IMG/VR virus record: IMGVR_UViG_3300032397_000015 | Span: 1 to 56,100 of that record | DNA from: a virus | Taxonomy: Duplodnaviria; Caudoviricetes | Length of the DNA stretch: 56,100 bases | Direction: 5' to 3' (one strand) | Shown here: positions 8,205 through 51,284 of the stretch, in pieces | How the letters are laid out: every line of letters begins with the position of its first letter | Numbering within the stretch: the stretch's first letter is position 1 | Position numbers and translations under genes: made by a program | The notes under the pieces: generated by a model | Database searches by the model: none | What the model saw: only the letters and a program-made list of their open reading frames with translations | What the model was told of the DNA's origin: nothing

Positions 8205-8220
8205 GGCATAAGGGTTTTGA
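8205..8220 (+). promoter_or_regulatory. Conserved GGCATAAG-N4-TTGA motif (putative phage-specific promoter) upstream of ssb
   Basis: GGCATAAGGGTTTTGA; the same core precedes all four plus-strand blocks. Confidence 0.75.
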
Positions 8221-8268
8221 ACGCAGACACTAGGTCTAGCGCACCCACCATTTCAGTCAGGAGCCACA

Positions 8269-8670
8269 GTGAACATCCAGTTTTTCTCAGGGAACTTGGG
8301 CAAGGACCCAGAAACCAAGACGGTCGGAGATACGACCGTCACCAAGATCACCGTCGCCTGCGGTGAGCGGTGGAAGGACAAGGACGGCAAGCCACAGGAG
8401 AAGACGGAGTGGATCGAAGTCTCGTTCTGGGGGCCGCAGGGAGAGGCCCTGGCCAAACATCGCAAGAAGGGCGATGGCATCGTGGGATTCGGCAAGACCG
8501 AGACCAGGGCCTATGACGAGAAGGGCGAGAAGAAGTACTACCGCTCGGTGCGTGGTAGTCACTGGGAGTTCCCGCCCGGCCGCAAGGCGCCAGGCGAGAG
8601 CTCTGGCCATCACGACGATAACGATGGCCCGCCCGCGTCGGCCTCTTCCGGCGACGACATTCCGTTCTGA
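8269..8670 (+). CDS. ssb: Single-stranded DNA-binding protein
   Basis: GNLGKDPE, E-KTEWIEVSFWG OB-fold signature, and acidic C-terminal tip DDIPF. Confidence 0.95.
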   Translation: MNIQFFSGNLGKDPETKTVGDTTVTKITVACGERWKDKDGKPQEKTEWIEVSFWGPQGEALAKHRKKGDGIVGFGKTETRAYDEKGEKKYYRSVRGSHWEFPPGRKAPGESSGHHDDNDGPPASASSGDDIPF

Positions 8671-8681
8671 AAGGAGAGGCT

Positions 8682-9107
8682 ATGTATTACTTCACCCACC
8701 GTCAAAGTAATGGCACCCCCTCCAGCCTCGAATTGGCGCTCGGCGACTTCGTCGTGACGCCAGGCGGGGTGATGGCGTGGCTGCAGCCTCCGCTTGGCAA
8801 GCTGTCCCGTCATTACCCATGGCGGGCGTTCCCGTTCGCCATGTCCGCCATGAGGACGCTGATCGATCTTGAGTCAGATCCGGACCTGCTGTGCAGGCTC
8901 TCGAATCGTCTGAGCCTGAGCGTCGACGAGACGAACATGCTCAGTGAGAAGATGGAGATCGTGACAGAGGATACGAACAGGCTGATCTCATGGTCGTATG
9001 AGATCGCCGATCAGTGCCCCCACAGAGAGATTGCCAACATGCTCAGAAATGTTGGCAGCATGGGGTCAAGGGAGCGCGACGGCTTCGTCGCTTCATTCCT
9101 GGACTGA
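8682..9107 (+). CDS. Hypothetical protein
   Basis: 141 aa with a strong AAGGAG RBS; follows ssb. Confidence 0.75.
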   Translation: MYYFTHRQSNGTPSSLELALGDFVVTPGGVMAWLQPPLGKLSRHYPWRAFPFAMSAMRTLIDLESDPDLLCRLSNRLSLSVDETNMLSEKMEIVTEDTNRLISWSYEIADQCPHREIANMLRNVGSMGSRERDGFVASFLD

Positions 9108-9148
9108 TCGTCAAGGGGTCGATGGAGATGGCGCAACGCGCCATTTTC

Positions 9149-10234
9149 TTAGCCAACCTTGGCGCCGCGGTAACCGCGCTGCGGATTGTTCAAGCTCTTG
9201 ATCGTGTCCGAAAAGTAAGCTGACTTGCTCGGCGGCTTGGCTTTCGCCGTCTCCTTGGCCCTGGCCGATGGATTTGTATTGGGGCGAGTCGTCTTCGGTT
9301 TTGGGGCCGACATGCCCGTGTGCCAAGCCGCGCTGGCGGATGCGCGCAGCAGCCCGGGAGATTGCACCTCCTTGCCCGCAGTGGCAGCGGTCTTCTCGGC
9401 AGCCGCATCTCCGCCGCGCAAGGCGGCCAGCACCTTCTGAGCGATGAGAGTCGCCAGCATGGGGGTTGCTGCCGCCAGGGCATAGGTGCCGTAGGCGGGA
9501 AGCAGTTCTTTCGCGGTCTGCGCAACGCCGGGGCCGAATTTGCGAGCGCCGACCAGCGCGTTCTTCGTCGCCCTGGCCTCCTCTAGCAACTGCGGCACGG
9601 CTGTCGCCCCAACCAGCAGTGGGGCGTGGTCGCGCGCAAAGCCACGAGCATCGGTCTCGTCGTCCTTCGCCGCCGTGATGGCGTTCAACATTAAGCCAGC
9701 TCGCGCTGGCCCGCCGACCAACCTGACGGCCGCCCCGAAGTTCTGCCAGATATTGCGCAGCAGGGTGCTGCCGAGGATCGGCGAGGCGTGGCCGATCTCA
9801 TGCATCATCACCGGGACCGATCCCAGCCTGGTGACAATCTGCTCCTCGGCCAATCCCAGCGGAAGACCAAGTCTGTCTGACAGCTTCTTGGCCTCGGCCG
9901 GGTCCATATTCCTGGCTACCATCGGCATCCCAGGAAAGAACATCGCATTGCCAGGAACCCCGCCGGCCATCATCGGAGTCGTTACGCCTTTGCTAGCCGC
10001 AAAGTCTGTCAAGTCCTGTACTTCTTTGCGTGTAAAGGCTGAGAGCTGCTCCAGTGGAGTTCCTGTCACCTCCGTCACCGGACTCATGGCATTCCACCTG
10101 TCCGAGATCGCCCCTCCAAGGGCGCGCTGCCCCATCTTCCCAGCCTGCAGCGTTGCCAACATCGCCGCCACGGACGGCAGGGAGCTCCTCTGAAAGCTTG
10201 GCGCGGGTGCCGGTTTGTCGCTGTCGTCCGCCAT
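9149..10234 (-). CDS. Putative zinc metallopeptidase (HEXXH) with hydrophobic segments
   Basis: MMHEIGHAS plus downstream LLEEARAT (candidate third ligand Glu); TGATG coupling to the RNAP gene. Confidence 0.6.
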   Translation of the reverse strand: MADDSDKPAPAPSFQRSSLPSVAAMLATLQAGKMGQRALGGAISDRWNAMSPVTEVTGTPLEQLSAFTRKEVQDLTDFAASKGVTTPMMAGGVPGNAMFFPGMPMVARNMDPAEAKKLSDRLGLPLGLAEEQIVTRLGSVPVMMHEIGHASPILGSTLLRNIWQNFGAAVRLVGGPARAGLMLNAITAAKDDETDARGFARDHAPLLVGATAVPQLLEEARATKNALVGARKFGPGVAQTAKELLPAYGTYALAAATPMLATLIAQKVLAALRGGDAAAEKTAATAGKEVQSPGLLRASASAAWHTGMSAPKPKTTRPNTNPSARAKETAKAKPPSKSAYFSDTIKSLNNPQRGYRGAKVG

Positions 10235-13200
10235 CAGTAAACTCCCTCAGTCTTCGACCTGCCTGTTGGATCTTCTCCGAATTCAGCCCCATAGGCAAAG
10301 CCGGGGATGGGCGAGTACCCATGCAAGTCAGACTCGGCGCCACGTGCAGCGCCCTCGACAATGGCGGACTTCAGGCGTCGATAGCCCATCTGGCTCATCC
10401 AGTCGTCGCGCATCATGGGAATCTCCTGGATGCCCTTGAGGAAGGGGCGGTGGAGGATGGGCAGCGGTCCGGTCTCGACCTCCGTGAGTCCCGTACGCTC
10501 CAACAGCTTCTTGACCCGGTCGTTGATCACGGTCCCCTTGGGGACCCCGGGCACGTCCTCCTGGAGCGTCATGCCGTGGGCGTCTTCCAGACTCTTCTTG
10601 CCGAGCTTCTTGGCGTTGTAGTCCTCGACCACAGTCCAGGGCGCCACGTCGCCGGGAAGGAAGTCGCTGCCGCCGGGGTCCAGCACTCGAGTCGTATTTC
10701 CGACCGACCGCACGACTGTTTCGATGGCGCGCCGCTTCAGGTCGACACCCTGGCTGGCATAGGCAGACTGGATCTCGTTGGAGAGGTACTCCTGAGCGGC
10801 GCGCATCCCCTTGAGGCGAGCGAGCTCATCGGGCTGAGCCAGGCCCTTGGAGATGATGTCTCCCTTGGAGATCTGACTACCGACGCGAATCCTGTCCGAG
10901 TCCCACAGGTCGTTGGGGATGTAGTGATTCTTGCCATCGATGCTGACGTCCCTGCCGGTATCGCCTACCGACGACGTGACGCTATCGACCGTGCCATCGT
11001 TTTGCGCGAGGGCGGCCTTGCCCCGCTTGATCTCCGGCATCTTAAGCAGCTTGTCGATCTTGTCGTAGCCAGAGATAACGCCGCGAGTGCCGGAGATGCC
11101 ACCGGAGTGGAAGGTGCGCATCGTCATCTGGGTCAACGGTTCGGACATCGCCTGTCCGGAGGTGGCGCCAACGTTGTCGCCAATCGACGGCGACATCCCA
11201 TGCTCGTTGATCCCGTAGCACTTGGCGCAAACCCCCTTCGGCAGCCTACAGGTGATGGGCGAGCGGACGTCCACGGTCTTGATCTTGCGATCGCGCAACG
11301 TGCTCAGCAGGCCAGATGTCACCTGGCTGCCTGCATGAGCGACGACCTCGCCCTTGTACAGGATGTCCTTGGCGAGGAAGCGGTCCTCGACGTCCGACGA
11401 ATTGATGTCGACGTCGAGCCCCTCATGCGTGCCGCAGTCGTCCTTGGCGATGACCGTCGACACAGCCGAGGCCATGATGTCCTTGTTGAACTCGCCAGGC
11501 TTGCTGGTCTGGAGCTGCTTGTCGACGGCCGTGGCGCGAGCTCCATAGAGCGTGCTCCAGTAATCGGAGAACGGCAGCCCCTCCGAGAAGGAATTCATGA
11601 TCGGGAAGGGGGAGGCGTTGCCACGATGGTCGTCGACCATGAACGGCGTGGACACCGTCTGCTTGAGCTGGGTCATGTTGCCGCGCGCACCTGACCGGAC
11701 CATCAGATTCAGATTATTGGTCTGGGCGTTCAGGCCGGACGTCACAGCGGCGTCGAGCTGCTTGCCGGCGGCACCCATGATCTGTCGCCCCTCCTCGCGC
11801 TGGGCGGGATCTGACAGGTCTAGCTTGTTAAGCGCCTTGGTCGTCTGGTCGAAGATGCCTTGCTTGCCGGGGATCACGGGCGTCAAGTCTTTCATGCTGA
11901 CCGTGAAGCCTGTGCGGTAGGTGTGCTCGTCACCGAGCTCCTTCAGCTTGTCGAGCACCTTGCCGTAGTCGCGCGGCATGGTTTCGGCTAGATCCATGGT
12001 CAGCGCGCGCAGACCCTTCTTATCCAGTTCGACATCCTTGAACTTCTCCTGCATCGAGGCCGGAAGCAGCGCCGTGATCGCACCCCGCTTGGCCGGATCC
12101 TTCGACATCAGGAATAGCCCCAGGGCAGACTCATTCTGCGGCGTCATCATGATCTGCCCGGTGCCGGGGTTGTAGAGATTGTTGGATGGCAGCATCCGCT
12201 TCGCCTCCTCGACCGCATCCGGCAGCACGGGCACATGGACCGTCATGGCGTCGCCGTCGAAGTCGGCGTTGAAGCCCTTGACCACCAACGGCGGAATCTT
12301 GATGGCCTTGCCGTCGGTGATCTGCGGCATGAATGACATGATCGAGAACTTGTGGAGAGAGGGGGCGCGATTCAGGATGATCGGACGCTCCTTCATCTCG
12401 GCGTCGAGCGCGGCCCGTGCGCTGGGAGTGCGGTCCTTGACTTCCTTGGACGCCTCCGTCGGGGATTTACCGGCGGAATTGACCAATCGTCGCGTGATGA
12501 ACGGCTGGAAGATGTTCCAGGACATCTCTTCCGGTAGGCCCACCTCGTCCAACCCGAGCTTTGGCTCGGGAATGATGGTGCCGCGCCCGACCAGGTCTTG
12601 ATTGCGCCGCAGCACGCTCTTGATGAAGAAGCCTTCTTTGGCAGCCTTGTCTCCTTTGATCTGCCGGATGATGCCTTGAGGCACCCGCGACTTGGGGTAT
12701 TTGGCGATGGGATCACCCAGCCCATAGATGGCGGCGACGCCGTCGTACAGATTCTGACGAAGGTCCGACTTCGACGACTCAGGGATGTAGTCCACCCCCT
12801 TCTGCCAAGCCAGCTCGTTGTTGACCAGGCTGACGTCACGGTAGAGCGTGTTCAGTCCTGGATTTGAGATCTGACCGTCGTCGCTTTCCACGATCTGCCG
12901 GAACTGCGGGGGGATGATCGGAATCTTGCTCTGGACGTAGGCGTCCTCGGGGCGCACCCCCGTCTTCTTCAGAGCGTGCAGGTACTTCAGCTTCTTGTTC
13001 GCTTCATCGAGCTTCGCGGCGGTCTTGGACGTCTTGGCCTTGTCCGTCCACGTCTTGATATCGGCATCAACATCGATTCGGCTGAGCATCTTCTGGAAGG
13101 CGGGGCCTCCCGTCAGCCCCTTGTCTGCCCACTCTCCGGTGGCGGGATCGACAAACAGGTCTCCCTTGACCAAGCCCTTGTACTGCGTGTCCGAGATCCC

Positions 13201-16200
13201 CGTCAGCTTCTTGATCGGATTCTCGAAGACAGGGTTGGCGATGGGTTCTGAGAGCTGGATATGACCCCAGCGGTCACCGAGCTTGCCGCCAAAGATCTCC
13301 GGATCCATCAGCCCCCCGACCTCTTCGCGCAGGTCCTTGCCGCGCACGAAGATGGGCTCCTTGATAGCCCCCGAGCTCATGTTCGTGACCTCTTTGTCGG
13401 TCATCGGGTTGATGATCATCCTGGAGCCGTTGCGCTTGGTATTCACGCCTGCGCCGTTCAGGTATGCCTCGAATTTCTTGTACGCGAAGGTAGGCTGGGG
13501 CGGTGGGGCGATCTGTCCGCTCTTGTGGCCAGCCGACAGCCAGTTCCAAAAGTTCTCATTCTGAGAGCCCTTGTATGTCGCCATCTCGCGCAGGTTTGCC
13601 CGACTGCCGTGAGACAGCATCGAGTAGAAGGACAAGAGGTCCAGCGCCTTGGCGCCATCCTCGCCGCCTCTGAGAGGAGCGCGGTTGATGTCGTACTTTC
13701 CGTCGCTGCGGGCGGAAAACTGCGAGGTGGCCTGCTTGGCCAACTTGAGAACGTACTGCGGACCTACCAGCACATCGCCCAGCGGCTCCTTGCTGTGCGC
13801 ATCGAACAAGGTCTCGGTATCGGAAATCTTGTTCTTCGCCAGCTCAGCGGTCATGTCGCGGGCGTAGTCGGCACCCGTGAAGTTGTCGACGACGTACGGC
13901 TTTCCGTTCTTCTCGGCGATCTTGGCCGCTGCGGTCTCGAGGATCTGCGACGGGTTGATGCGCGTGACGATGCCGTGCGGATTTAGGAGGATGTCGACCT
14001 TGTTCGCCGTGCCATCAGCGTTCTGCGTATAGGGCGCTTCCCCGTCGGAAATGATCTTGGTGATGATGCCCTTCGCTCCGTGCCTGTTCGTGAGCTTGTC
14101 GCCAATCTGCGCTGGCTCGTTGGTCTTTACATAGACCTTCACCTTCTTGCCAGCCTTCACGACATCGACGACCGTCCCGTCGGCATCTCCGGTCCATTCC
14201 TCCATGTGGCCACGCCGAGGGTTCGTGCTCGGGGCGATCTTTTTCATCGCCAGGTATTCGGGGTCGTACTTGTTCTCACGCGTCCCCACCCAGAGCGGGT
14301 CGCCCTTCTGTAGAACCTGGCCCTTGCGGACGATGCCGTCGTCGTCCAGCTTGTCCTGCTGCTCCGGCGTCAGCGCTCCGGGCCTCCAGGCCATGAATGC
14401 GTCCTTGGAGAACGCATCGCCTTTGTCGGCAGAGACCGAATGCTCGTGCATGTGCTCGCTGGCAAGCTTCTTGGCCGCCGCCTCGGTGATGACGATGCCG
14501 TCCTCAAAGTTGTAGCCCTTATACGGGACATAGGCCGCCCGCAGGTTGGTGCCGATGGCGAGGGTCCCGTCGCGGGTGAAGTTGGAGTCGGCCAGCACGC
14601 CGCCCTCCTTGACCACATCGCCTGCGACGACGGTTGGGTCAGAGTGCAAAAATGACTTTCCGTTCAGCGGCAGATTGTTGTAGATCGGCTGCTCGACCAC
14701 TCCATCCTTAGTCCGGACGGTAATCCTGTTTGGAGTAACCTTCTCAACCACGCCGTCGGCCAACGACCTGACCGAGAACCCCTCGCCAATCGCATCCTCG
14801 ATGGTCCCCTTGCCGACCTTGACCTGAACCAGCGGCGCTTCGCGGCTAGTCAGCGGGATGGCCTGCTCGATCATCTTCGTAGCCATCTGCGCACGCACGC
14901 CCTGCGCCGACGCCAAGAACGGGATCGTGTTGGAGGCGATGGAGAACGCCTGCTTCGCGGACGAGAGCACTGCATCGACGTCGGACGCCTTCACCGACTG
15001 CATCTCGCCCTTGATCATGACCTTGACCTTGTCGGCGATGGGCTTGCCATTTCGATACTGGTCGGGGAACGCCACCACCATGTCTCGCATGTCAGACGGG
15101 CTGGCCCAGCTCTGAGTTCCGTCCTTCGGGTTGGTCACCCTGGTCTGCAGGTCCTCTTTGTCCTTCGACGTCCCCATCGGCAGGTTGAGCACGATGCCGA
15201 TGTTGCTGGAGTCGGGCGTGTGAATCGGGTCAATGAACCCCATGTGCGACGGATGAAGCGAGTGCTCCTCATCGCGAACTGCTCGCTCCGACTGAACCCC
15301 GCCCTCGCCAAGGATGGTGACCTTGGAGCTCCCGTTGATCATGTTGATCGGGTTGGTCTGGTCCGTCGTGTTGGCCAACGACGACTGGGTGAAGAAGCTG
15401 GTGAAGATGGAGCTCAGTTCGTTAGAGCTGACCAGCTTGGAGATGTCGGTAGGCGGAGACTTGCGATTGTTCAGGCGGTAGAAGATCTTCTTGCGCAGCT
15501 CGGACAGCTTCGGTGCGAGCTCGCCGGATTCCTGGATAAGGCGTTCGCCGATCAGGTCGGCGGGCCCCAAGACCTTCTTGTACTCAAGTGCCTCGCGGTC
15601 ATCGATCCCTCGCTGCCCCCTGGTCAGCTTGAGCAATTCCGATGACCCGTCGAGCAGCGCCTCTGGCCCTACCCTGTCGTAGCCCCTGCCGAGCGTGGCC
15701 TTGGTGACCTCAGGACGAATCTCTCCGTCTGATTCAAAGAACCCGTTGATGGCCTCGGCGGCCGCAGCAGGTGAGTCGTGCTTGGAGCGAGTAAAGTACT
15801 CGCCCGCCTTGAGCACGGCCTGCGTGGACTTCTTCTCGTTCAGCGCCTTGTTGACCTCGAGCACATCCACGCCCCACGCCTTGGACATTGCGGAATCAGA
15901 GACTCCGATCCTGGAAAGGATGGGATAGAGCGGCACCCCCGTACTATCCTTTCCACCCTTCATCAGCTTGAAGACGCCGCTGGCGTCGTCATATTTGATG
16001 TCGAAGGGGCGTCCGGCGATGTTGATCTCGGTCTTCTTCTCGCCGTTTTTCTTCTCGGTGACGTAGATGCCCGGCTTGCGGCGCAGCTGGTTCTGGACCT
16101 GGTAGTGCTTACCGTCGACAATGAAGCTACCCAGGTCGGTGGTCTTGGGCAGCGTGGCGATCTTCAGCTTGTTCGTCGACGACAGTACCTCTCCAGTCTT

Positions 16201-16434
16201 CCGGTCGACCAGGTCCATCGCCACGTAGACTGGGACGCCCCAGGTCCTGTCCTTACGGACTGCCTCGCGCTGCGACTCCCAGTCGGCTGAGTCTTTGTTG
16301 TCGTCTACCCATACGTTTTTGACCACGATCTTCCGGCCAGTGCCGGTGGCCTGGATGTCCAGGGCCTTCGAAAAGGACGAGACCACGTCCTTTTTGATCT
16401 TCTCGAACTGGCTGGCATGGTCAAACGGGTTCAT
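10234..16434 (-). CDS. rpoBC: DNA-directed RNA polymerase, fused beta-beta' single polypeptide (2066 aa)
   Basis: Beta motifs GSFIVDG, HPSHMGFIDPIHTPDSSNIG, GYNFEDG, GDKLTNRHGAKG, DILLNPHG. Beta' motifs GLMDPEIFG, WGHIQL, LNRAPSLH, catalytic NADFDGD (12250-12270), SGARG, RSPITC...CAKCYG, trigger loop EPLTQMTMRTFHSGG. All lie in one frame with no internal stop. Confidence 0.97.
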   Translation of the reverse strand: MNPFDHASQFEKIKKDVVSSFSKALDIQATGTGRKIVVKNVWVDDNKDSADWESQREAVRKDRTWGVPVYVAMDLVDRKTGEVLSSTNKLKIATLPKTTDLGSFIVDGKHYQVQNQLRRKPGIYVTEKKNGEKKTEINIAGRPFDIKYDDASGVFKLMKGGKDSTGVPLYPILSRIGVSDSAMSKAWGVDVLEVNKALNEKKSTQAVLKAGEYFTRSKHDSPAAAAEAINGFFESDGEIRPEVTKATLGRGYDRVGPEALLDGSSELLKLTRGQRGIDDREALEYKKVLGPADLIGERLIQESGELAPKLSELRKKIFYRLNNRKSPPTDISKLVSSNELSSIFTSFFTQSSLANTTDQTNPINMINGSSKVTILGEGGVQSERAVRDEEHSLHPSHMGFIDPIHTPDSSNIGIVLNLPMGTSKDKEDLQTRVTNPKDGTQSWASPSDMRDMVVAFPDQYRNGKPIADKVKVMIKGEMQSVKASDVDAVLSSAKQAFSIASNTIPFLASAQGVRAQMATKMIEQAIPLTSREAPLVQVKVGKGTIEDAIGEGFSVRSLADGVVEKVTPNRITVRTKDGVVEQPIYNNLPLNGKSFLHSDPTVVAGDVVKEGGVLADSNFTRDGTLAIGTNLRAAYVPYKGYNFEDGIVITEAAAKKLASEHMHEHSVSADKGDAFSKDAFMAWRPGALTPEQQDKLDDDGIVRKGQVLQKGDPLWVGTRENKYDPEYLAMKKIAPSTNPRRGHMEEWTGDADGTVVDVVKAGKKVKVYVKTNEPAQIGDKLTNRHGAKGIITKIISDGEAPYTQNADGTANKVDILLNPHGIVTRINPSQILETAAAKIAEKNGKPYVVDNFTGADYARDMTAELAKNKISDTETLFDAHSKEPLGDVLVGPQYVLKLAKQATSQFSARSDGKYDINRAPLRGGEDGAKALDLLSFYSMLSHGSRANLREMATYKGSQNENFWNWLSAGHKSGQIAPPPQPTFAYKKFEAYLNGAGVNTKRNGSRMIINPMTDKEVTNMSSGAIKEPIFVRGKDLREEVGGLMDPEIFGGKLGDRWGHIQLSEPIANPVFENPIKKLTGISDTQYKGLVKGDLFVDPATGEWADKGLTGGPAFQKMLSRIDVDADIKTWTDKAKTSKTAAKLDEANKKLKYLHALKKTGVRPEDAYVQSKIPIIPPQFRQIVESDDGQISNPGLNTLYRDVSLVNNELAWQKGVDYIPESSKSDLRQNLYDGVAAIYGLGDPIAKYPKSRVPQGIIRQIKGDKAAKEGFFIKSVLRRNQDLVGRGTIIPEPKLGLDEVGLPEEMSWNIFQPFITRRLVNSAGKSPTEASKEVKDRTPSARAALDAEMKERPIILNRAPSLHKFSIMSFMPQITDGKAIKIPPLVVKGFNADFDGDAMTVHVPVLPDAVEEAKRMLPSNNLYNPGTGQIMMTPQNESALGLFLMSKDPAKRGAITALLPASMQEKFKDVELDKKGLRALTMDLAETMPRDYGKVLDKLKELGDEHTYRTGFTVSMKDLTPVIPGKQGIFDQTTKALNKLDLSDPAQREEGRQIMGAAGKQLDAAVTSGLNAQTNNLNLMVRSGARGNMTQLKQTVSTPFMVDDHRGNASPFPIMNSFSEGLPFSDYWSTLYGARATAVDKQLQTSKPGEFNKDIMASAVSTVIAKDDCGTHEGLDVDINSSDVEDRFLAKDILYKGEVVAHAGSQVTSGLLSTLRDRKIKTVDVRSPITCRLPKGVCAKCYGINEHGMSPSIGDNVGATSGQAMSEPLTQMTMRTFHSGGISGTRGVISGYDKIDKLLKMPEIKRGKAALAQNDGTVDSVTSSVGDTGRDVSIDGKNHYIPNDLWDSDRIRVGSQISKGDIISKGLAQPDELARLKGMRAAQEYLSNEIQSAYASQGVDLKRRAIETVVRSVGNTTRVLDPGGSDFLPGDVAPWTVVEDYNAKKLGKKSLEDAHGMTLQEDVPGVPKGTVINDRVKKLLERTGLTEVETGPLPILHRPFLKGIQEIPMMRDDWMSQMGYRRLKSAIVEGAARGAESDLHGYSPIPGFAYGAEFGEDPTGRSKTEGVY

Positions 16435-16454
16435 TGGGCCACCTAACCCCCGCG

Positions 16455-16470
16455 GGCATAAGGATTTTGA
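16455..16470 (+). promoter_or_regulatory. Conserved GGCATAAG-N4-TTGA motif
   Basis: GGCATAAGGATTTTGA in the divergent gap between rpoBC and the 16550 island. Confidence 0.75.
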
Positions 16471-16549
16471 GAACAGAGCTTACCCGTAACCGTCGTCGGA
16501 TTGCTCCAACATCTCAACAATACTCAAGCATTCAGAGGAGGGCTACGCC

Positions 16550-16759
16550 ATGTACTTCTTTCCAGCAAGCTCAGGAGGCGCGAACGACGGACGCTCGTCA
16601 TTGGCGGGGGATGCCAAGAATCGTGTACTGATCGCGATCGTCGAGGCAAGCCTGTGGACGGTCGCCAGGGCGGCGGAGATGTGGCTGCTCTCGTCGGTGT
16701 TGATCAACCTGTCCGGCAGGCGTTCGTCGCGTAAATCTTCAAATCGAAACCAAGCATAG
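16550..16759 (+). CDS. Small hypothetical protein with hydrophobic segment
   Basis: 69 aa with GAGGAGG RBS. Confidence 0.6.
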   Translation: MYFFPASSGGANDGRSSLAGDAKNRVLIAIVEASLWTVARAAEMWLLSSVLINLSGRRSSRKSSNRNQA

Positions 16760-16773
16760 GAGGAGACCCAGGC

Positions 16774-17211
16774 ATGTATTTCTATCCAAGAAGGCCACCG
16801 TTGGCAGATGACGGTTCTGGCGGATTCGTCAGCAAGGTTCTAATGGGGCTATCCGCCACCGCGATGGTCCCGGCACACGGATTCATATTCCAGGGTCGAG
16901 GAGCGGTTGCTGCAGCGCCGAGCCCGCTGGGAATGTGGATGAGGGCGTTCCTGGGGGCGTGCGCCTGGGGATTCATGATTGCTGCGGGCAGCCTTGTCTA
17001 CAACCACTTCGTCAAGAAGTGGCAGTCGAGCGGCCTGCCGATGCTCCCTATCGCTGCACTGGTGTCAGGAGCGTCAACGATACAGCAAAGCATGGGGCAG
17101 GCTCCGAGCCAGCAGCAGGCGTCGGCCGGCGGGCTCGGTAGCGGGGCACCTCAATTCACCCGAGCGCGCCAGCCCGGGCAAACATCATTCCTCGAGGAGT
17201 ACGAGGGCTAG
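16774..17211 (+). CDS. Hypothetical membrane protein
   Basis: 145 aa, AGGAGG RBS, hydrophobic stretches such as AFLGACAWGFMIAAGSLVY. Confidence 0.7.
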   Translation: MYFYPRRPPLADDGSGGFVSKVLMGLSATAMVPAHGFIFQGRGAVAAAPSPLGMWMRAFLGACAWGFMIAAGSLVYNHFVKKWQSSGLPMLPIAALVSGASTIQQSMGQAPSQQQASAGGLGSGAPQFTRARQPGQTSFLEEYEG

Positions 17212-17672
17212 TTGAGTAGGCTGGCGATCAGCACGCCTGCCAAGATCGATGTCGACACGCCCGCGATCGTCCACGCCACCGGGGAGCCCCATGTGGGCTT
17301 CACCCGTTCCTGTTGGTACTTAAGGTCCAGATCCAACAGCTGTTTCGTCAGGTCAGAGTTTCGCTGTACGAGAATTGATTGGCTGCCCGCATACGTCGAC
17401 ACCTGCCCCTTCAGCTCAGTGAGCTGTAGGTTCATGGTCGCGGTCAGGTCGGCATCAATTTTTAGCTGGATGCGGGAGTGAACGAGCTCCGCGTCCGACC
17501 CGAGGACGAGCTTCCAGTCCTCGATGTCGAGGTATCCGCAGACGTCGCCAGCGGCAGTCTTGTAGACCTTGCACGCCGGCAGTGTCTGCGGCTGGTAGAC
17601 CGGATCAGCGAGCGCTGGGGTCGATGTCACGCCAAGAGCGAATGCTATCGATAGCACGCAGGTCAGCCGCAT
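17208..17672 (-). CDS. Secreted coiled-coil protein with C-terminal TM helix (spanin-like partner)
   Basis: Start reassigned to ATG 17672 (MRLTCVLSIAFALGVTSTPALA, GGAG RBS). Signal peptide, heptad-rich middle, C-terminal hydrophobic helix. Confidence 0.6.
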   Translation of the reverse strand: MRLTCVLSIAFALGVTSTPALADPVYQPQTLPACKVYKTAAGDVCGYLDIEDWKLVLGSDAELVHSRIQLKIDADLTATMNLQLTELKGQVSTYAGSQSILVQRNSDLTKQLLDLDLKYQQERVKPTWGSPVAWTIAGVSTSILAGVLIASLLN

Positions 17673-18027
17673 ATCTGCTCTCCTCGGCCCTGATGTCGGC
17701 CTGGATGATCCGGACCTTTTCCTCGGACGCCGCAACAACCTTCTGCGACTCCGCGATCGCTGCCGAGTTGGCGGCAATCTTGGTGTCAACGATGTCCTGT
17801 GCGGCCTTGACCTCGACGACGAACTTCTCATGGCGGAGCTTGGCCAGCTCCTGGTTGCGCCGCCAGGAGATCCACGCCCAGACGGCAACACCGGCCAAGG
17901 CGATGCAGGCCAGGATCAGCGTCCCGACCCAGGACTTGCTGTTCCCGGTCTTGGGATCCTTCTGCGCCGTGCCGGCAGCCTGGAGCTTGGCCAGGAGTGC
18001 GGTTGGGTCAAAGCCCGGGAGGTCCAC
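17605..18027 (-). CDS. Rz / i-spanin-like protein
   Basis: One TM helix (WVGTLILACIALAGVAVWAWI) followed by a coiled coil; overlaps the downstream gene as Rz/Rz1 pairs do. Confidence 0.55.
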   Translation of the reverse strand: MDLPGFDPTALLAKLQAAGTAQKDPKTGNSKSWVGTLILACIALAGVAVWAWISWRRNQELAKLRHEKFVVEVKAAQDIVDTKIAANSAAIAESQKVVAASEEKVRIIQADIRAEESRYAADLRAIDSIRSWRDIDPSAR

Positions 18028-24265: not shown

Positions 24266-24268
24266 GGG

Positions 24269-25435: not shown

Positions 25436-25465
25436 AAGGTATCACGCCTGTTTCAGGGGGGTCAA
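25436..25465 (-). promoter_or_regulatory. sigma70-like promoter TTGACC-N18-TACCTT with extended -10 TG
   Basis: Read on the minus strand about 25 nt upstream of the 25411 start. Confidence 0.55.
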
Positions 25466-25489: not shown

Positions 25490-25505
25490 GGCATAAGAGC
25501 TTTGA
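25490..25505 (+). promoter_or_regulatory. Conserved GGCATAAG-N4-TTGA motif
   Basis: GGCATAAGAGCTTTGA upstream of the single plus-strand gene at 25555. Confidence 0.75.
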
Positions 25506-25905: not shown

Positions 25906-25910
25906 AGCTA

Positions 25911-41832: not shown

Positions 41833-44743
41833 TGATAGACCTGCGCAAATCTACCACTTGCTTCTCGGACAGTGGCTGCGTAAGAGGCTTGCGTTCATTC
41901 TGTTCCAAGCCGTCGCCGGTCGGCGCCTGGTCCTTGGGGGCCATGGTCTTGCACACGGTGGGGCGATGGCGCCCCTTGCTGGTGCGGGCCTCCTCCTCCT
42001 TCTTTTTCTTGGCCAGGTCGGCCACGCGCTTTTGCGCCGCGGCTGCCTGCTCCTTATCCGTCGCTGGGCGAGTTGCCCCTCCTTCGACCGAGAACCAGTC
42101 GGCATTAGTTCCCGGCGGAGGCCTGTCCGCCTCGTTGGCGTTGGGGCCATAGCCAGCAGCTTTCAACGACTCCTGCCATAGACGAAATTCGAAGTCGTAC
42201 ATGAGCGGGCGGCCGTTGTACCTGGGGAAGTCAGACGGTCCCGCCTCGGTCACCAGCAGCGCGTTGCGCGTCTTGACGTCGGTTGCCTCTTTGCCGGTGT
42301 GGATCTTGGTGTCGAAAATAGGGAATGCGCCGGACATCAAGTTTGGCGCCGGCTTGACGGCGTCGGCGTGTACAGGATCTGCACCGGACACTGCGTCGAC
42401 CTCCAGGGTCGTGGAGGTGGCGGTTGGCGCCGTCGTCTTTCCTGTAGCTGTTCCAGAATAGCCGGAGCCGACGGACGCGTCGCCTACGAACCTGTCGAGA
42501 CGAGCTGTTTTATAGTTGATCGTCCTGGACGCTGCCGGGCTTCCGTTAAAGGTGACGGGTACGTCGCCGGTCGCGGCGGCAAGCTCAACTCCATTGTCGA
42601 ACACCTTGTCGGCGAACTCGCGAGGGGATGCGCCGACGAACCTGAATGCCTGGTCAATCGTCGTGAACGTTCGCTTGGTTCGCTCGGAGGCCATGTCGAA
42701 CTCGTGACCGTTGTCGCGAGCTAGCCGGTATCGAGAGTTCATCTCGACCACGGCGTCGTGCAACTGGATCGCGTCGTTGGCGGGGATGATCCGATCGCGT
42801 AACGCGGCAGGGAGGTCTGCTTCCGTGGCCTTATGATCCTTGGTTGTCTTGGCGGTCAAGGCAGCGGCGATGGCCGCGTCCTGGACCTTGATGTCGGCAG
42901 TTTCCTTTTCTGTCGGCGGCTTGAACAGTACTCGCTGAACGACTCCGACGCTCTTTCCGAACCACTCCGCGTAGCGCAGGTCCAGCCCCTCCAGCGTTCG
43001 ATATGCCTCATCGAACCACTCCGGAACCGGCGGCTGGTTGCCACCCTCGAACACCTTGGAGAAGTCGTAGTTGCCCGCAGCGTCTCGAGCCAAGTCGAAA
43101 TCAAGCGGATCGCCAAGCTTAGAGCTCTTGAAGATGGGGCGATTGAGATCGATCTCGTCAGTCAGACGGGGGTGGCTGATCGTGTATGAGGTGATGGCCG
43201 TGCCGCCAGAATCGATCGAGTGCTGAATACCGTCGAGATAGGCGACGATGTTCATGTTGGCGGCTGAGTCGTCGAGGGCGAGGATGGGAAAGCCGGGGAC
43301 GGGGCGAATGTTGTATGGCCCGGCCAGCGACGTCTGCCTCGCTACGTACTTGGACTTGAAATACTCGTAGCTCGCCACGTTCTGCAGATACTTTGGGACT
43401 CCTCCGGTGCGCGCCCCGGTTGGGGTGCGCTTGCCTGGGTCGGTCAGCGTGAGTGTCGAAGGGGCGGGTGCAAGATTGATGAATTCGTAGACGATTCCAC
43501 GGATGCGCTCCTCGTTGGTCGTCCAGTCGTAGTCGGAGAATGTGGGGGTCTGGCCGGCACCATCCGCAAATTTCCCATCGGCAGATCGCTTCTTGATCGA
43601 CTTGCGGTCCGGATCACGGACGAGCGCCTGGAATACCTCGAGCTCGGTCGGGCGGATGAAGCGGACCCCCTGGAGAGCCTGCGCGGACAGCATCGGGATC
43701 TGCGGCTGCATCTGCAGTCGCGTCGTCTCCTGCAGGAAGTTCTCCTGATACGCCATGCTGTCGTACATGTTAGGAAATAGGATGTTGCACGTCGGAGGCG
43801 ACAGCGAATAAACGTGAGGCTTGAAGATGACGCTGCCGATGACATCGTCCTCGGCGGTCTCATATTCGAATAGGTCAACCTTGGCGACGCCGTTGACGTT
43901 GCGCTTTACGGTCTTCTTGTTGCGCTTGATGTTCCCGAACGAGTCCCGCATGAAGATGCGGGTCTTGAGGTACGGGGGCGCAGGCACGGAGACCCACTCA
44001 TGCATGATGGAGCTAAGTAGCTGGTTGACCATCTCGGCCAGATTGGTCTGCCCTCCGGTGCGTCCGGCCAGGCCATCCAGGAAGTCGGACATCATCGCGA
44101 GCTCGAACAGTTTCGAGGTGGCGCCGGCCGGCCCGCGAATAATCCGGTCGGTCAGGCGAAATCGGTTACGGACGTTCGTGTAAAACGGGTTCACGTTGCC
44201 GACATCGTCGATGGCGGAAATCATGGTGTCCATGAATCGCTCTTCCGGCTGGTCTTTGGCCGCGCCCAGGCGCTGGCTCATGTAGCCGTACGACCCCGTC
44301 GAGTTCACCGTCCCGAGCTTGGCGAAACCGCCAGAGTCAGCGGTGACCAGCTGGTCGACGATGTTGCCGCCAGCTGAGGTCAGGTTCAGCCAGAACTGAC
44401 GAGCCTCGACCCAGTAAACCGAGGGATCTGCGCACTGGACGGTAAAGTTTCGACCTCCGCCTTGACGGCTGAAGCCTCTGGAGATGACGACGCCCTCGAA
44501 CAGGAGCTTGTAGTCAGACAGGTCGCCGGCCGGGCTGATGTCCCAGGGATCGGTTGTGAAAATATGGATCCACGTCCCGGGCATGATGTGCTTGATCGTG
44601 TTGGTCGGGACGAGCTCGATCTGAGCCATGGCCGGGGATCCAATGGTCCCGGACACGTTCGTGTGAACGAGCGCGTTCTCGATGAGCTGCCCCTCGAGGT
44701 AGATGCGCAGCTTGACGCTGGTTCCTGATCCGTGGCGGGCCAT
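41783..44743 (-). CDS. Baseplate hub protein (gpD/gp27-like)
   Basis: 986 aa; LRIYLEG...LFEGVVISRGF...FTVQCAD N-terminus and GPYNIRPVPGFP...YLDGIQHSI are typical of hub proteins. Confidence 0.7.
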   Translation of the reverse strand: MARHGSGTSVKLRIYLEGQLIENALVHTNVSGTIGSPAMAQIELVPTNTIKHIMPGTWIHIFTTDPWDISPAGDLSDYKLLFEGVVISRGFSRQGGGRNFTVQCADPSVYWVEARQFWLNLTSAGGNIVDQLVTADSGGFAKLGTVNSTGSYGYMSQRLGAAKDQPEERFMDTMISAIDDVGNVNPFYTNVRNRFRLTDRIIRGPAGATSKLFELAMMSDFLDGLAGRTGGQTNLAEMVNQLLSSIMHEWVSVPAPPYLKTRIFMRDSFGNIKRNKKTVKRNVNGVAKVDLFEYETAEDDVIGSVIFKPHVYSLSPPTCNILFPNMYDSMAYQENFLQETTRLQMQPQIPMLSAQALQGVRFIRPTELEVFQALVRDPDRKSIKKRSADGKFADGAGQTPTFSDYDWTTNEERIRGIVYEFINLAPAPSTLTLTDPGKRTPTGARTGGVPKYLQNVASYEYFKSKYVARQTSLAGPYNIRPVPGFPILALDDSAANMNIVAYLDGIQHSIDSGGTAITSYTISHPRLTDEIDLNRPIFKSSKLGDPLDFDLARDAAGNYDFSKVFEGGNQPPVPEWFDEAYRTLEGLDLRYAEWFGKSVGVVQRVLFKPPTEKETADIKVQDAAIAAALTAKTTKDHKATEADLPAALRDRIIPANDAIQLHDAVVEMNSRYRLARDNGHEFDMASERTKRTFTTIDQAFRFVGASPREFADKVFDNGVELAAATGDVPVTFNGSPAASRTINYKTARLDRFVGDASVGSGYSGTATGKTTAPTATSTTLEVDAVSGADPVHADAVKPAPNLMSGAFPIFDTKIHTGKEATDVKTRNALLVTEAGPSDFPRYNGRPLMYDFEFRLWQESLKAAGYGPNANEADRPPPGTNADWFSVEGGATRPATDKEQAAAAQKRVADLAKKKKEEEARTSKGRHRPTVCKTMAPKDQAPTGDGLEQNERKPLTQPLSEKQVVDLRRSIIEAYREELANARGFTG

Positions 44744-44747
44744 ATGA

Positions 44748-50127: not shown

Positions 50128-50128
50128 T

Positions 50129-50482
50129 CTATCTCCTGCCGACCGGCTTCTTCTGTTTCAGAACGTTCTTCATTCTCCCCCAAGATCCCTTCTCGAGCGA
50201 GTTTCCCACAGGGACGATCGAGTATGCCTTCTCTTTCTCTGCCTCCATGATTTCCATGGCTCTCTCGACCGCGTTTGCTCGCTCCTTGCCGACCTCTGGG
50301 AACATCTCCTCGATTAACTTACGCAGCGCTCCTTGCGCCTTGTCTGGATTCACTGCCGCCGTGCAGACCGCGATGGTCTGGTAGAGGCTGATTCGCTGCT
50401 GTTTCCTCCACGCCGCAATCGCTAGGCTCTCACTGAGGCTGCCGTACTCAACGTCAGTCCCTTGGACCAGGTGGAGGTACAC
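50129..50482 (-). CDS. Tail assembly chaperone second ORF (GT-like), possibly expressed by -1 frameshift
   Basis: Immediately upstream of tape measure. Its frame is open upstream past the stop of 50506-51186 and is -1 relative to that gene. Confidence 0.6.
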   Translation of the reverse strand: MYLHLVQGTDVEYGSLSESLAIAAWRKQQRISLYQTIAVCTAAVNPDKAQGALRKLIEEMFPEVGKERANAVERAMEIMEAEKEKAYSIVPVGNSLEKGSWGRMKNVLKQKKPVGRR

Positions 50483-50505
50483 CCGCGCCCATCCCGAGGG
50501 AGAGC

Positions 50506-51186
50506 CTAGGACCCCGAGAAGGAGTCTTCTTTCTTCAGGTGGTCGGTCAGGGCCTGGTTGAACAGCGTGACCTTGCTAGACACGATGTCGACGAAGCCTG
50601 ATCCGCGCTCTTCGAACCACTTCATACGGTCGGTTAGCGATTCGCCGATCGACTGCCCGTCCAGTTTCTGGACCGCCATAGCGGCAATGGCCATCGCATT
50701 CATCTGCCGCAGAAAGAACTCGCTAACCTGCTTCTCTTTGCCATCTTTGGTCTTGGACCAGTCGCCGTTCATGATGAACGTGTCGATCTCCTTGAGGTCC
50801 TTGGCCTGCGACGACCTGACTGTGACGATGTGACTACCCAGGACCTTGAGGTCGCGGACCACATAGCCGCGGAAAATATAATCCTGTACATCGGCATCGG
50901 TGAAGGCGGCGATGCCAAGCTTCTTCTCGATGCCGCCATGCAACTGATCGAACCCGCATTTGGCACAAAAGGCGGCGCTTCGCGGAACCTCTGCGCGACA
51001 GAAGGTGTTGCGGCAGCTCAGGTCTTCCGCGGCCTCTGCCACAGGCGCGGCCTCCACCTCTGCCGCCGGACGTGTCATCCGCTTAACATTCTCGGGAGCC
51101 GCTGAGCCAATTCCGGCTGGCATGCTCGGCTGGCGTGACTTCTGCTTATCCAGCTGCTCTTGGATATCCGGGGGCAAGTTTGACAT
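50506..51186 (-). CDS. Tail assembly chaperone-like protein with Zn ribbon
   Basis: CRNTFC...FCAKCG; AAAGGA RBS; two genes upstream of tape measure. Confidence 0.65.
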   Translation of the reverse strand: MSNLPPDIQEQLDKQKSRQPSMPAGIGSAAPENVKRMTRPAAEVEAAPVAEAAEDLSCRNTFCRAEVPRSAAFCAKCGFDQLHGGIEKKLGIAAFTDADVQDYIFRGYVVRDLKVLGSHIVTVRSSQAKDLKEIDTFIMNGDWSKTKDGKEKQVSEFFLRQMNAMAIAAMAVQKLDGQSIGESLTDRMKWFEERGSGFVDIVSSKVTLFNQALTDHLKKEDSFSGS

Positions 51187-51222
51187 ATCGATCCTTTTGA
51201 TTCACCGGGTTGTAGCCGGTCC

Positions 51223-51251
51223 AGTGTAGGCCGCGACGACGGCCCGGTCAA
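51223..51251 (-). promoter_or_regulatory. sigma70-like promoter TTGACC-N17-TACACT
   Basis: Heads the tail operon, about 37 nt upstream of the 51186 start. Confidence 0.75.
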
Positions 51252-51268
51252 CGCATCCCCGGTCGTCC

Positions 51269-51284
51269 GGCATAAGGAACTCAA
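51269..51284 (+). promoter_or_regulatory. GGCATAAG motif (variant GGCATAAG-GAAC-TCAA)
   Basis: Directly upstream of the AAGGAGG RBS of the first gene in the right-hand plus-strand block. Confidence 0.7.

Follow-up and report, generated by a model that had tools for sequence, protein, structure and literature searches.

A fused beta-beta' RNA polymerase, a divergent sigma factor and a candidate dedicated early promoter in an Arash-like phage lineage

The locus and its phage

The window analyzed here is a complete IMG/VR record of 56.1 kb (56,100 nucleotides), the record itself amounting to about 31% of a genome by completeness estimate. Its minus strand carries virion genes, including those for the terminase, portal and baseplate wedge, together with genes for a single-chain RNA polymerase (RNAP) and a sigma70-family factor; its plus strand carries four gene blocks, each headed by the octamer GGCATAAG (Table 1). 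Both the RNAP and the sigma genes lie within late/structural modules, the former having the terminase block on one side and, upstream on the common strand, the portal gene on the other, and the latter flanked by tail and baseplate genes in a synteny that recurs in Salmonella phage Arash. On the plus strand, the lone gene at 25555-25854 is closed off by an intrinsic terminator, the tail of which, TTTTTAGC, is enriched in the related genome G001 and likewise, as the reverse complement, in Arash. In the helicase arm, which ends in small genes running off the contig, Pfam matches are absent for all genes other than the helicase.

The window was assigned to a lineage of 175-204 kb phages that includes Arash among its isolates; the complete relatives span this range, in agreement with the size of ~175-205 kb that characterizes Arash-like phages. 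Eight window proteins match Arash by tblastn, with homologues of the terminase, portal, RNAP, sigma, baseplate and helicase, and the core genes and their synteny are common to both. The source is, most likely, an Arash-like myovirus with a genome of roughly 180 kb, belonging to a family that extends over at least 185 viral contig stretches and at least 120 listed protein clusters.

Table 1. Genes and sequence elements of the window
Feature	Positions	Strand	Remarks
Large terminase subunit	1790-3577	-	phrog_675 at 1e-52; tblastn to Arash gp1, 29% identity; virion-gene strand marker
Class A core, GGCATAAG	8205-8212	+	before SSB block; predicted start ~8219
SSB	8269-8670	+	phrog_44 at 4e-27; early-strand cassette 8269-9107
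Fourth class B match	8677-8705	-	antisense, at junction of SSB and next gene; role uncertain
Gene without assigned function	8682-9107	+	second gene of SSB cassette
Hairpin and T-run	~9128-9148	+	3' of SSB cassette; read from the sequence
Single-chain beta-beta' RNAP	10234-16434	-	ATG start, 2066 aa, no internal stops
Class A core, GGCATAAG	16455-16462	+	before 16550-16759/16774-17211; predicted start ~16469
Small genes	16550-16759, 16774-17211	+	downstream of octamer at 16455
Portal protein	18804-21755	-	weak phrog_64 match; tblastn to Arash portal region, 5e-50
Class B, TTGACC-N18-TACCTT	25436-25465	-	TG before -10; intergenic, before operon 24269-25411
Class A core, GGCATAAG	25490-25497	+	before lone gene; predicted start ~25504
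Lone plus-strand gene	25555-25854	+	GC3 0.92; terminator scan hit at 25873-25898
Intrinsic terminator	25873-25910	+	11-bp stem, then TGTTTTTAGC; closes one-gene cassette
Class B, TTGACG-N18-TAGAAT	33728-33757	-	intergenic, before gene 33071-33715
Baseplate wedge	36455-38518	-	on the strand of RNAP and sigma
Divergent sigma70-family factor	40954-41832	-	sigma2, sigma3, sigma4; 292 aa from TTG start
Class B, TTGACC-N17-TACACT	51223-51251	-	intergenic, before tail operon starting 51186
Class A core, GGCATAAG	51269-51276	+	before helicase arm; predicted start ~51283
Early-strand helicase arm	51295-56099	+	ends in small genes running off contig
376-aa gene without assigned function	51295-52425	+	first gene of helicase arm
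SNF2-type helicase	52434-54416	+	phrog_62 at 6e-106
Fifth copy of GGCATAAG	53970-53977	+	within helicase gene

The polymerase and its sigma factor

The original prediction placed a fused RNAP gene and a sigma70-family gene on the virion-gene strand, and both are borne out. In the RNAP, residues ~1-1000 correspond to beta and ~1000-2066 to beta'. Pfam domains Rpb2_6 (163 bits, 1.1e-47), Rpb1_2 (87 bits), Rpb2_3 (42 bits) and Rpb1_5 match above cut-off; Thermus beta 80-1063 aligns with residues 55-962 and E. coli beta' 162-519 with residues 1091-1449, the similarity to beta' chains reaching an E-value of 1e-109. The metal-binding NADFDGD of the beta' double-psi beta-barrel, at 1389-1395, and the catalytic lysines K780 and K788 of the beta barrel are invariant across 22 aligned relatives. 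Judged by its sequence, then, the enzyme is a bacterial-type RNAP catalytic core, with the catalytic motifs intact. With profiles for alpha (PF01000, PF01193) and omega (PF01192), the window, G001 and the complete genomes of Arash and Vibrio phage D69 all lacked matches at E<=1, in searches with controls that were positive in 14 of 14 genomes and with a reach that a very divergent alpha-like protein could escape.

The sigma factor is highly divergent. Its likely start is at 41799, giving 281 aa, the length of the database copy, which begins 11 codons later than the longest frame. Its match to phrog_351 ('RNA polymerase sigma factor') reaches 3e-11, whereas all Pfam matches are below cut-off (Sigma70_r3, 20.8 bits against 25.3; Sigma70_r2, 12.9 bits), as are the best NCBIfam match (42.7 bits against 384.5) and the superfamily model TIGR02937 (18.5 against 42.9). 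By phmmer, residues 65-286 align with SigA 157-381 (E 8.7e-7). For the AlphaFold model (pLDDT 83.3), the listed Foldseek matches in PDB (ranks 1-50) are all sigma chains, at a probability of 1.00 and a best E-value of 1.3e-6, with TM scores that are low because the domain arrangement differs. By alignment and model, the protein is one with the sigma2-sigma3-sigma4 fold.

The sigma gene is present in 17 of the 24 large RNAP-bearing contigs and in all 8 of those that are at least 90% complete, and in the phage collection, it matches only the isolates with the RNAP (4/4). In the predicted complex, sigma region 2 is placed on the beta' clamp helices, with contacts between RNAP 1181-1228 and sigma 73-89 (ipSAE 0.79, best control 0.00); at least 41% of the contacts recur across the three runs, with partner pLDDT of at least 64. 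This mark is reached by 58 of 80 solved complexes versus 2 of 110 mismatched pairs, and the score may reflect memory of, or likeness to, solved holoenzymes. Relatives carry extra sigma-like factors, namely, a second sigma in Arash (gp196) and a sigma4-only protein in G001, and the window is a 31% fragment, so that other transcription factors may lie in the absent ~69% of the genome; the notion of a 'minimal two-component' holoenzyme is, for these reasons, unproven.

Two classes of promoter-like sites

The octamer GGCATAAG occurs in the window in five exact copies, all on the plus strand (0 on the minus strand; 0.73 expected), a number reached in none of 100 shuffles, and is the top 8-mer of an unbiased k-mer scan; its one-mismatch variants are at chance level (24 seen versus 24.5 expected). 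The claim that it precedes every plus-strand block holds for all four blocks of the window, that is, for ~31% of the genome, each with an intergenic copy 26-95 nt before the first start codon; the fifth copy, which is intragenic, may be an internal promoter for downstream genes. The site at 8205 is conserved in G001, L002 and L003. At 16455, with the RNAP start codon 21 nt away on the opposite strand, 8 of the 10 aligned relatives have the exact motif and the other 2 have it with one mismatch, forming a conservation island at a fixed spacing from that codon.

The strand bias extends through the family. In G001, all 10 copies are on the early strand, which encodes the primase-helicase, rIIA/rIIB, a clamp-like factor and an exonuclease, versus 0 on the opposite strand, which encodes the capsid and sheath. 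The corresponding motif is GGTATAAG in Arash (30 versus 1 by strand) and the variant GTTATAAG in D69 (18 versus 1), where the GGYATAAG form is not enriched. Over 81 loci, GGYATAAG occurs 133 times on the early strand versus 16 on the other (33 and 31 for the reversed-pattern control), with no early-strand copy at 24 of the 81. Early-strand and opposite-strand counts in distant near-complete genomes are 22 and 2, 16 and 0, 6 and 0, 13 and 3, and 5 and 1, and enrichment is absent in 4 of 10 distant genomes (G013, G015, G016 and G024).

A logo of 165 unique sites, from which the transcription starts were predicted, shows that position -1 is T in 107 sites and position +1 a purine in 153, and has a weak A-rich patch ~16 nt upstream, with no -35 element. 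The geometry is of the sigma70 type: the predicted start, a purine, lies 7 nt past the motif, and a -35 is lacking. These patterns support the view that the octamer acts throughout the family as a conserved promoter specific to one strand. A sigma70-like -10 element is universal, so that its retention across hosts counts for less as evidence than it might seem to.

On the virion-gene strand, the window contains four matches to TTGACS-N16-18-TAnnnT (0.64 expected; 0 of 100 shuffles reach four), all on that strand, a post hoc count given that the pattern was defined after three sites had been seen. The prediction that TTGAC...TAnnnT elements precede structural operons stands for the three intergenic sites, the fourth, at 8677-8705, being antisense and of uncertain role. 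Generic sigma70 scans of the window yield no excess (0, 2 and 2 matches seen versus 3.6, 4.1 and 2.6 expected), and a promoter of the RNAP gene itself was not found. TTGACC sites of like form lie upstream of the RNAP gene, at a matching distance, in L024, L025, L026, L028 and L030 and, from position, we read them as orthologous to the site at 25436-25465.

A possible virion-delivered holoenzyme and its alternatives

The association of sigma with the RNAP and the existence of dedicated early promoters are well supported, and transcription in this phage probably begins independently of the host enzyme. Under the scheme we propose, the RNAP and sigma would be made late, loaded into the virion and introduced into the cell alongside the DNA as a two-protein holoenzyme, which would initiate at the GGCATAAG promoters, with a purine start 7 nt downstream, the motif acting like an extended -10 (GG at -14/-13, YATAAG at -12 to -7) without a -35. 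Such class A promoters would head every replication/early-strand unit, and the virion-gene strand would use the second class, TTGACS-N17/18-TAnnnT in this lineage, the reading of which would fall either to the sigma70 RNAP of the host or to the phage core equipped with a further factor made early. We consider the chances of this scheme as a whole, packaged holoenzyme, early promoters and second class included, to be evenly balanced. Packaging in this phage, the timing, and the assignment of enzymes to promoter classes are what we infer. In a search for RNA runs, none was found to contain this DNA. The original prediction would have the phage enzyme, rather than that of the host, fire GGCATAAG and the host sigma70 RNAP read the structural operons; as a whole, its model is partly supported.

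For packaging, the analogy is Arash (OQ632216; BMC Microbiol 2023, PMC10585845). According to the available text of that paper, mass spectrometry of virions gave 3516 spectra for RNAP beta (Gp206), the most of any protein, 1210 for beta' (Gp216) and 467 for the orthologous sigma (Gp10), within a list of 116 proteins for which the authors allow carry-over of abundant ones. The gene set is already in print, which the original prediction missed in its account of known systems; the promoter and the family-wide pairing of RNAP with sigma we did not find in print, and the part of the Arash paper available to us (PMC10585845) describes neither promoters nor a family; rifampicin is not mentioned in the paper. 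Arash, D69, D181 and D148 belong to the same lineage as the window phage and likewise have virion genes on one strand and early genes on the other, the latter strand carrying the motif in Arash and D69. They differ from it in an RNAP that is only 31-33% identical by tblastn (33% in Arash), in the Arash gene, which a 4.7-kb insert splits into gp206 and gp216, compared with the single chain here, and, in Arash and D69, in a late motif, TAAAATA, compared with TTGACS-N17-TAnnnT here.

The leading alternative, an unlikely one, reverses the roles: immediately after injection, GGYATAAG would serve the host RNAP as an extended -10, the phage RNAP and sigma would later transcribe the virion genes, and their presence in Arash particles would be carry-over of abundant late proteins, as the Arash authors themselves suggest is possible (available text of PMC10585845). 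It gains from TGGTATAAG of Arash, which matches the host extended -10 TGnTATAAT at 8 of 9 positions, and from the sigma4 domain of the sigma, given that a -35 box is confined to class B promoters. However, the RNAP and sigma genes lie in structural modules on the very strand that they would transcribe, so the reversal becomes circular if their transcription is not initiated by the host enzyme. Moreover, the window motif has CATAAG, with G at -7, and TG at -15/-14 in 0 of 4 intergenic copies; as we read the SigA alignment, sigma region 2.4 lacks the WW dyad and region 4.2 lacks the residues that read the -35; and class B varies by lineage (TAAAATA in Arash and D69, TTGACS here), whereas class A is kept with the sigma.

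It is still less probable that the sigma redirects the host core, like T4 gp55 or SPO1 gp28, with the fused RNAP using another factor or none. The reviews, in the parts available, present phage sigmas acting on the host core as the norm, and the complex prediction cannot separate phage from host clamp helices; nevertheless, within the collection, this sigma type is confined to phages that have the RNAP (4/4), it is present in every near-complete RNAP-bearing genome (8/8), and the predicted interface is on the phage's own clamp helices. That GGCATAAG is a strand-specific signal other than a promoter, such as an RNA processing or regulator binding site, is highly improbable: one copy (53970) is intragenic and the promoter role is read from sequence, but the motif stands ahead of each plus-strand unit's first gene, in many cases straight after a terminator, 153 of the 165 sites have a purine at a fixed +7, a ribosome-binding site and start codon lie 26-95 nt downstream in the window, and the leader at 51269 is too short for the motif to sit inside a processed stretch of transcript of any extent.

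If the packaged holoenzyme is real, it would rank as the first virion RNAP to depend on a sigma and as the smallest bacterial-type transcription system in nature, and would supply an orthogonal sigma/promoter pair ready for use. The corresponding claim for the family, which we put slightly short of an even chance, is that these ~180-kb, largely undescribed phages share a self-contained alpha-less holoenzyme, consisting of the fusion and a private sigma, delivered in the virion and using a private 8-bp -35-less promoter, GGYATAAG, with G at -7, that is kept with the sigma across the family.

Several known systems share parts of this arrangement. In Helicobacter and Wolbachia, rpoB-rpoC fusions join beta and beta' in one polypeptide of ~2900 aa, and these enzymes retain alpha, omega and the housekeeping sigma; the window RNAP is likewise single-chain, with 2066 aa, and searches for alpha and omega gave none. 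N4 has a polymerase of ~3500 aa that is T7-like and single-subunit, recognizes hairpin promoters and is unrelated in fold to the window RNAP, and N4 late genes are transcribed by the host RNAP. The available text on N4 (PMC13434306) has the packaged polymerase transcribing early genes and its gene in the late region; the RNAP gene here is likewise in a late/structural module, its packaging being suggested by the analogy with Arash. The RNAPs of phiKZ and AR9 are also phage double-psi-beta-barrel enzymes without alpha or omega, and the virion copy transcribes early genes; according to the available portions of the reviews, they consist of 4-5 highly diverged polypeptides, with no sigma homologue by sequence, in contrast to the window RNAP, which is single-chain, clearly bacterial-type and accompanied by a sigma70-family factor.

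The three-domain sigma2-3-4 architecture of the sigma resembles that of group 3 sigmas (FliA/sigma28 type), and FliA/WhiG models give the best sub-threshold NCBIfam matches of Arash gp10. The FliA/sigma28 consensus is TAAA-N15-GCCGATAA, and the phage motif is reminiscent of it in its long -10-like element and in the weak patch of A residues ~16 nt upstream; however, the scores are far under the curated cut-offs, the motif is unlike that of group 3 and the apparent partner is a phage polymerase.

The fused polymerase and its probable sigma partner

The original prediction of a fused beta-beta' RNA polymerase (RNAP) gene accompanied by a sigma70-family gene is upheld by an intact frame of 2066 residues and, for sigma, by matches from phrog_351, phmmer and Foldseek. 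The Pfam domains of the polymerase, all above cut-off, run from those of beta (Rpb2_3, Rpb2_6) to those of beta' (Rpb1_2, Rpb1_5); residues 55-962 align with residues 80-1063 of Thermus beta, 1091-1449 with 162-519 of E. coli beta', and 1450-1943 with 665-1176 of Streptomyces beta' (best E ~1e-109). An alignment of 22 relatives shows no change in the NADFDGD motif (1389-1395) or at two lysines of the beta part, K780 and K788, and hardly any at cysteines 1667, 1729, 1736 and 1739. Because these domains, alignments and invariant residues are present, the protein is a catalytic core of bacterial type, compact and intact, in one chain, and it is almost certainly a functional polymerase. Six-frame searches for alpha (PF01000, PF01193) and omega (PF01192), which were positive in 14 of 14 control genomes, detected neither subunit in the window, in its nearest relative (G001) or in the complete genomes of Arash, a cultured Salmonella phage, and D69, a Vibrio phage of the same lineage.

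A protein search listed 120 clusters of RNAP relatives at 37-100% identity, about 2000-2850 aa long with the exception of two truncated ones, and a scan of viral contigs gave 185 stretches encoding such relatives, from which 80 loci were retained. Several clusters contain inteins; in many family members (P0024, P0031, P0055, P0060, P0061, P0067, P0077 and others), inteins or homing-endonuclease domains (PF14528, PF14890) lie within the enzyme and bring its length to 2400-2850 aa. In the Vibrio phages D181 and D148, the RNAP region holds a homing endonuclease, and in Arash a 4.7-kb insert divides the gene into gp206 and gp216. That insert holds one copy of an AT-rich dispersed repeat of ~150 bp (ATATATAACTATTTTTAGAAAAAGTCATT...GGGGTTACAAAGGTTACAA), the five copies of which lie at about 26.69, 66.43, 100.19, 138.54 and 173.31 kb of the Arash genome.

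The sigma protein scores under the cut-off of Pfam Sigma70_r3 (20.8 against 25.3) and far under that of every NCBIfam model matched. It matches phrog_351 at 3e-11, and phmmer aligns residues 65-286 with SigA 157-381, covering regions 2 to 4 (E 8.7e-7). An AlphaFold model built from 48 homologues had a mean pLDDT of 83.3, and among the Foldseek matches listed for it (ranks 1-50), all are sigma chains of holoenzyme structures, with probability 1.00. In the alignment with SigA, other residues stand in place of the region 2.4 WW dyad and the region 4.2 RERIRQ, with which housekeeping sigmas read the -10 and -35 elements. We class the protein as a sigma70-superfamily member lying outside all named subfamilies.

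The two genes travel together. In the phage collection, sigma matches came from four records, Arash, D69, D181 and D148, which are the four isolate genomes with a long RNAP; most of the other RNAP matches in that collection come from different phage enzymes or from mislabelled records that contain bacterial rpoBC. At least 10 metagenome contigs are common to the RNAP and sigma match lists, as judged from equal contig sizes. A sigma profile matched 17 of the 24 viral contigs that bear the RNAP and measure at least 100 kb, including all eight that are at least 90% complete, the seven sigma-negative contigs all being fragments (55-81% complete), and in both the window and Arash sigma lies in the same tail/baseplate synteny. 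A complex predicted for RNAP residues 1000-1460 and sigma reached an ipSAE of 0.79 (best control, 0.00), with at least 41% of contacts shared by three runs and a partner pLDDT of at least 64; in calibration, this mark was reached by 58 of 80 solved complexes and by 2 of 110 mismatched pairs. In the prediction, sigma 73-89 contacts the stretch of RNAP to which the clamp helices map (1181-1228). This complex may reflect memory, because sigma-core complexes have already been solved, and the prediction shows likeness, not binding. This sigma is quite likely the partner of the polymerase.

Probable promoter motifs of the two strands

The octamer GGCATAAG (family form GGYATAAG; hereafter class A) was the top 8-mer in an unbiased k-mer scan of the window on a second-order background, a maximal-order Markov background having masked it. 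Its five copies all lie on the plus strand (expected, 0.73; none of 100 shuffles reached five), and its one-mismatch variants occur at chance frequency. Four copies stand at the heads of the four plus-strand blocks, just as the original prediction had it, and the fifth is within the helicase gene. In the nearest relative, 10 copies occur on the same strand as in the window and none on the opposite one, often directly 3' of a hairpin-plus-T-run terminator; the genes of the motif strand include those for primase-helicase, rIIA, rIIB, helicase, a clamp-like processivity factor, a Sak4-like protein and an exonuclease, and the opposite strand bears those for sheath and capsid.

Upstream of the RNAP gene (16434-16500 in the window), the flanks have diverged among 10 genomes with RNAPs 57-100% identical; the octamer is exact in eight of them and one base off in two, and in all 10 it keeps a distance of 21-22 nt from the start codon of the oppositely oriented RNAP gene. 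The plus-strand leader, in the window and its relatives L001 and L003, also contains a block, CTTACCCGTAAC, that is kept in the three closest genomes. The fixed spacing and the conserved leader block suggest that expression from the early promoter and of the RNAP gene may be coupled.

Farther afield, the top strand-biased 8-mer of Arash is the reverse complement of GGTATAAG, with 30 copies on the early-gene strand versus 1; in D69, GGYATAAG is not enriched and GTTATAAG is (18 versus 1). Over 81 loci of the family (1.9 Mb, a few near-duplicates included), GGYATAAG was counted 133 times opposite the RNAP strand and 16 times on it, against 33 and 31 for the reversed pattern; 40 loci have at least two copies and 24 have none. 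The original prediction proposed looking for polymerase, sigma and motif together in related contigs. Polymerase and sigma do co-occur in near-complete genomes. Among 10 distant near-complete genomes, the strand bias of the motif is present in five (22 versus 2, 16 versus 0, 6 versus 0, 13 versus 3 and 5 versus 1), marginal in one (11 versus 4; reversed control, 8 and 12) and absent in four (G013, G015, G016 and G024).

A logo of 165 unique class A sites contains no -35 element. A-rich sequence is weakly favored 17-19 nt upstream, and the sixth and seventh positions after the final G are a T (107 of 165) and a purine (153 of 165), respectively. This geometry is that of the sigma70 family: YATAAG would lie at -12 to -7, and transcription would start at a purine after a discriminator of 6 nt. 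From the sequence evidence, the class A motif is very probably a promoter. To take TGGCAT-N5-TTTTGA for a sigma54-like element was rejected, since its downstream half is not conserved. Two k-mers of the Arash plus strand, ATATATAA and GGTTACAA, proved to be a dispersed repeat of five copies and not promoters. In the window (25898-25910), G001 and Arash, terminators of the early strand close with a conserved T-run and then AGC (TTTTTAGC); the string ranks with the most over-represented ones of G001, as does its reverse complement in Arash.

On the virion-gene strand, the pattern TTGACS-N16-18-TAnnnT (class B), composed once three of its window sites had been seen, occurs four times in the window (expected, 0.64; none of 100 shuffles reached four), and all four sites are on the strand of the structural genes, where promoter-like sites of this type had been proposed. 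The counts for the virion strand versus the other are 4 versus 1 in G001 (simple shuffles average 1.48, both strands combined), 8 versus 0 in eight close relatives and 41 versus 15 over all 79 loci scanned; generic sigma70 promoter scans gave no excess. In five of the eight close relatives, a TTGACC site of class B form lies at a matching distance upstream of the RNAP gene, and we read these sites as orthologous, from position only. A search of 16435-16549 for a promoter of the RNAP gene itself turned up nothing convincing, the class A motif being the only conserved block there. The virion strands of Arash and D69 have TAAAATA(T) in place of class B (17 versus 2 in D69), so that class B appears to vary by lineage and class A to travel with sigma. 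In these two phages, the T4-late-like TAAAATA(T) lies 20-40 nt ahead of many structural genes, and the Arash copies are often paired back to back with the early motif in reverse-complement form.

G001 additionally encodes a small protein that, apart from a Cys-rich N-terminus, amounts in essence to a near-canonical helix-turn-helix of sigma70 region 4.2 standing alone, without a sigma2 domain; its best NCBIfam matches are RpoD C-termini. It would be expected to be a candidate reader of the TTGAC-type -35 box of class B.

Probable virion delivery and the proposed transcription program

In the accessible part of the Arash paper (PMC10585845), 116 proteins are called virion-associated, and virion mass spectrometry gives Gp206 (RNAP beta) the most spectra, 3516, with 1210 for Gp216 (beta') and 467 for the sigma factor Gp10; the authors explain the presence of RNAP and sigma in virions by early transcription or carry-over. 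No promoter, rifampicin or timing data were found in that part of the paper. By analogy with Arash, the enzyme is probably packaged in the virion.

A second, more canonical sigma with Sigma70_r2 above cut-off is encoded by Arash (gp196, L014:20656-21693, 39-42 bits), and of 11 genomes searched besides Arash, four have a second clear Sigma70_r2 gene; carriers of such a sigma include G008, G015, G024 and D69. The name Gp196 is absent from the main text of the Arash paper (PMC10585845), virion table included. Its presence in some members and its absence by name from the virion table suggest a two-sigma temporal program. In the window and G001, tblastn against Arash and PF04542 revealed no gp196-like second sigma, a result that carries no weight because both are fragments.

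On balance, we favor the phage enzyme, not that of the host, as the reader of the class A motif. In the complete scheme, a sigma-dependent, alpha-less, single-chain phage holoenzyme, probably delivered with the virion, would read GGYATAAG promoters on the early strand; we consider the odds of this whole chain to be even. Since the window covers only about a third of the genome, the designation "minimal two-component" in the original prediction is not established. According to the portions of reviews of 2020, 2021 and 2026 that were available, RNAP-encoding jumbo phages are without sigma homologues, and large phages have either their own multisubunit RNAP without sigma, or sigma factors together with the host core. 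The present lineage breaks this rule because RNAP and sigma are both present, and no fused RNAP-plus-sigma phage system was found in the literature beyond the Arash paper. If the scheme is correct, the beta-beta' fusion would let a bacterial-type RNAP assemble and work without alpha and omega, a virion would be able to inject a sigma-dependent holoenzyme, orthogonal expression would gain a compact polymerase of two genes together with an 8-bp promoter, and a simple system would be at hand for how sigma reads G, not T, at -7. Arash grows on a laboratory strain of Salmonella, and therefore every step is directly testable.

Genome fragment and gene layout

The window is one contig of 56,100 bp with a GC content of 58-66%, no terminal repeat within it and a CheckV completeness of 31%. 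The sequencing runs listed as containing 8000-17500 are three DNA runs from sediment, with no RNA run among them. G001, the RNAP of which is 86% identical to that of the window, comprises 100,342 bp and is 55% complete, so that both values point to a full genome of ~180 kb; complete relatives measure 175-204 kb, two of them with direct terminal repeats. Genes called from third-position GC form a long minus-strand virion block broken by the four plus-strand blocks.

Coordinates of features in the window and, for the sigma-4.2 protein, in locus L007 of its nearest relative
Feature	Position	Strand	Description
Collagen-like fibre genes	2-1396	-	two genes, 2-1027 and 1094-1396; long Gly-X-Y repeats (GPPGxQGxTG...)
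Large terminase	1790-3577	-	virion block
RNAP	10234-16434	-	single open frame, 2066 aa
Portal	18804-21755	-	virion block
Baseplate wedge	36455-38518	-	virion block
Sigma	40954-41832	-	292 aa from TTG start; database copy 281 aa
Large tail proteins	up to 51186	-	virion block
Putative class A transcription starts	about 8219, 16469, 25504, 51283	+	from logo geometry
G001 sigma-4.2 protein	L007:11020-11508	- of locus (phage early strand)	162 aa; Sigma70_r4 42-44 bits

Annotation from PHROGs and Pfam gave nothing for most window proteins, including those of 9149-10234, 51295-52425, 38968-40953 and 41783-44743. The first of these genes is translationally coupled to the RNAP gene, and an Atlas search with its product matched unnamed viral clusters only. 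The two collagen-like genes probably encode tail fibres, and the one at 2-1027 extends past the contig end. Between portal and RNAP, in a region of high GC that produces long spurious overlapping ORFs, four small minus-strand genes (17208-18804) have signal-peptide-like or transmembrane-like segments and may constitute a lysis or membrane cassette. A small plus-strand ORF (54352-54684), with a winged-helix DNA-binding look as judged by eye, overlaps the last part of the helicase gene; should this ORF prove real, the next gene (54579-55433) probably starts near 54681.
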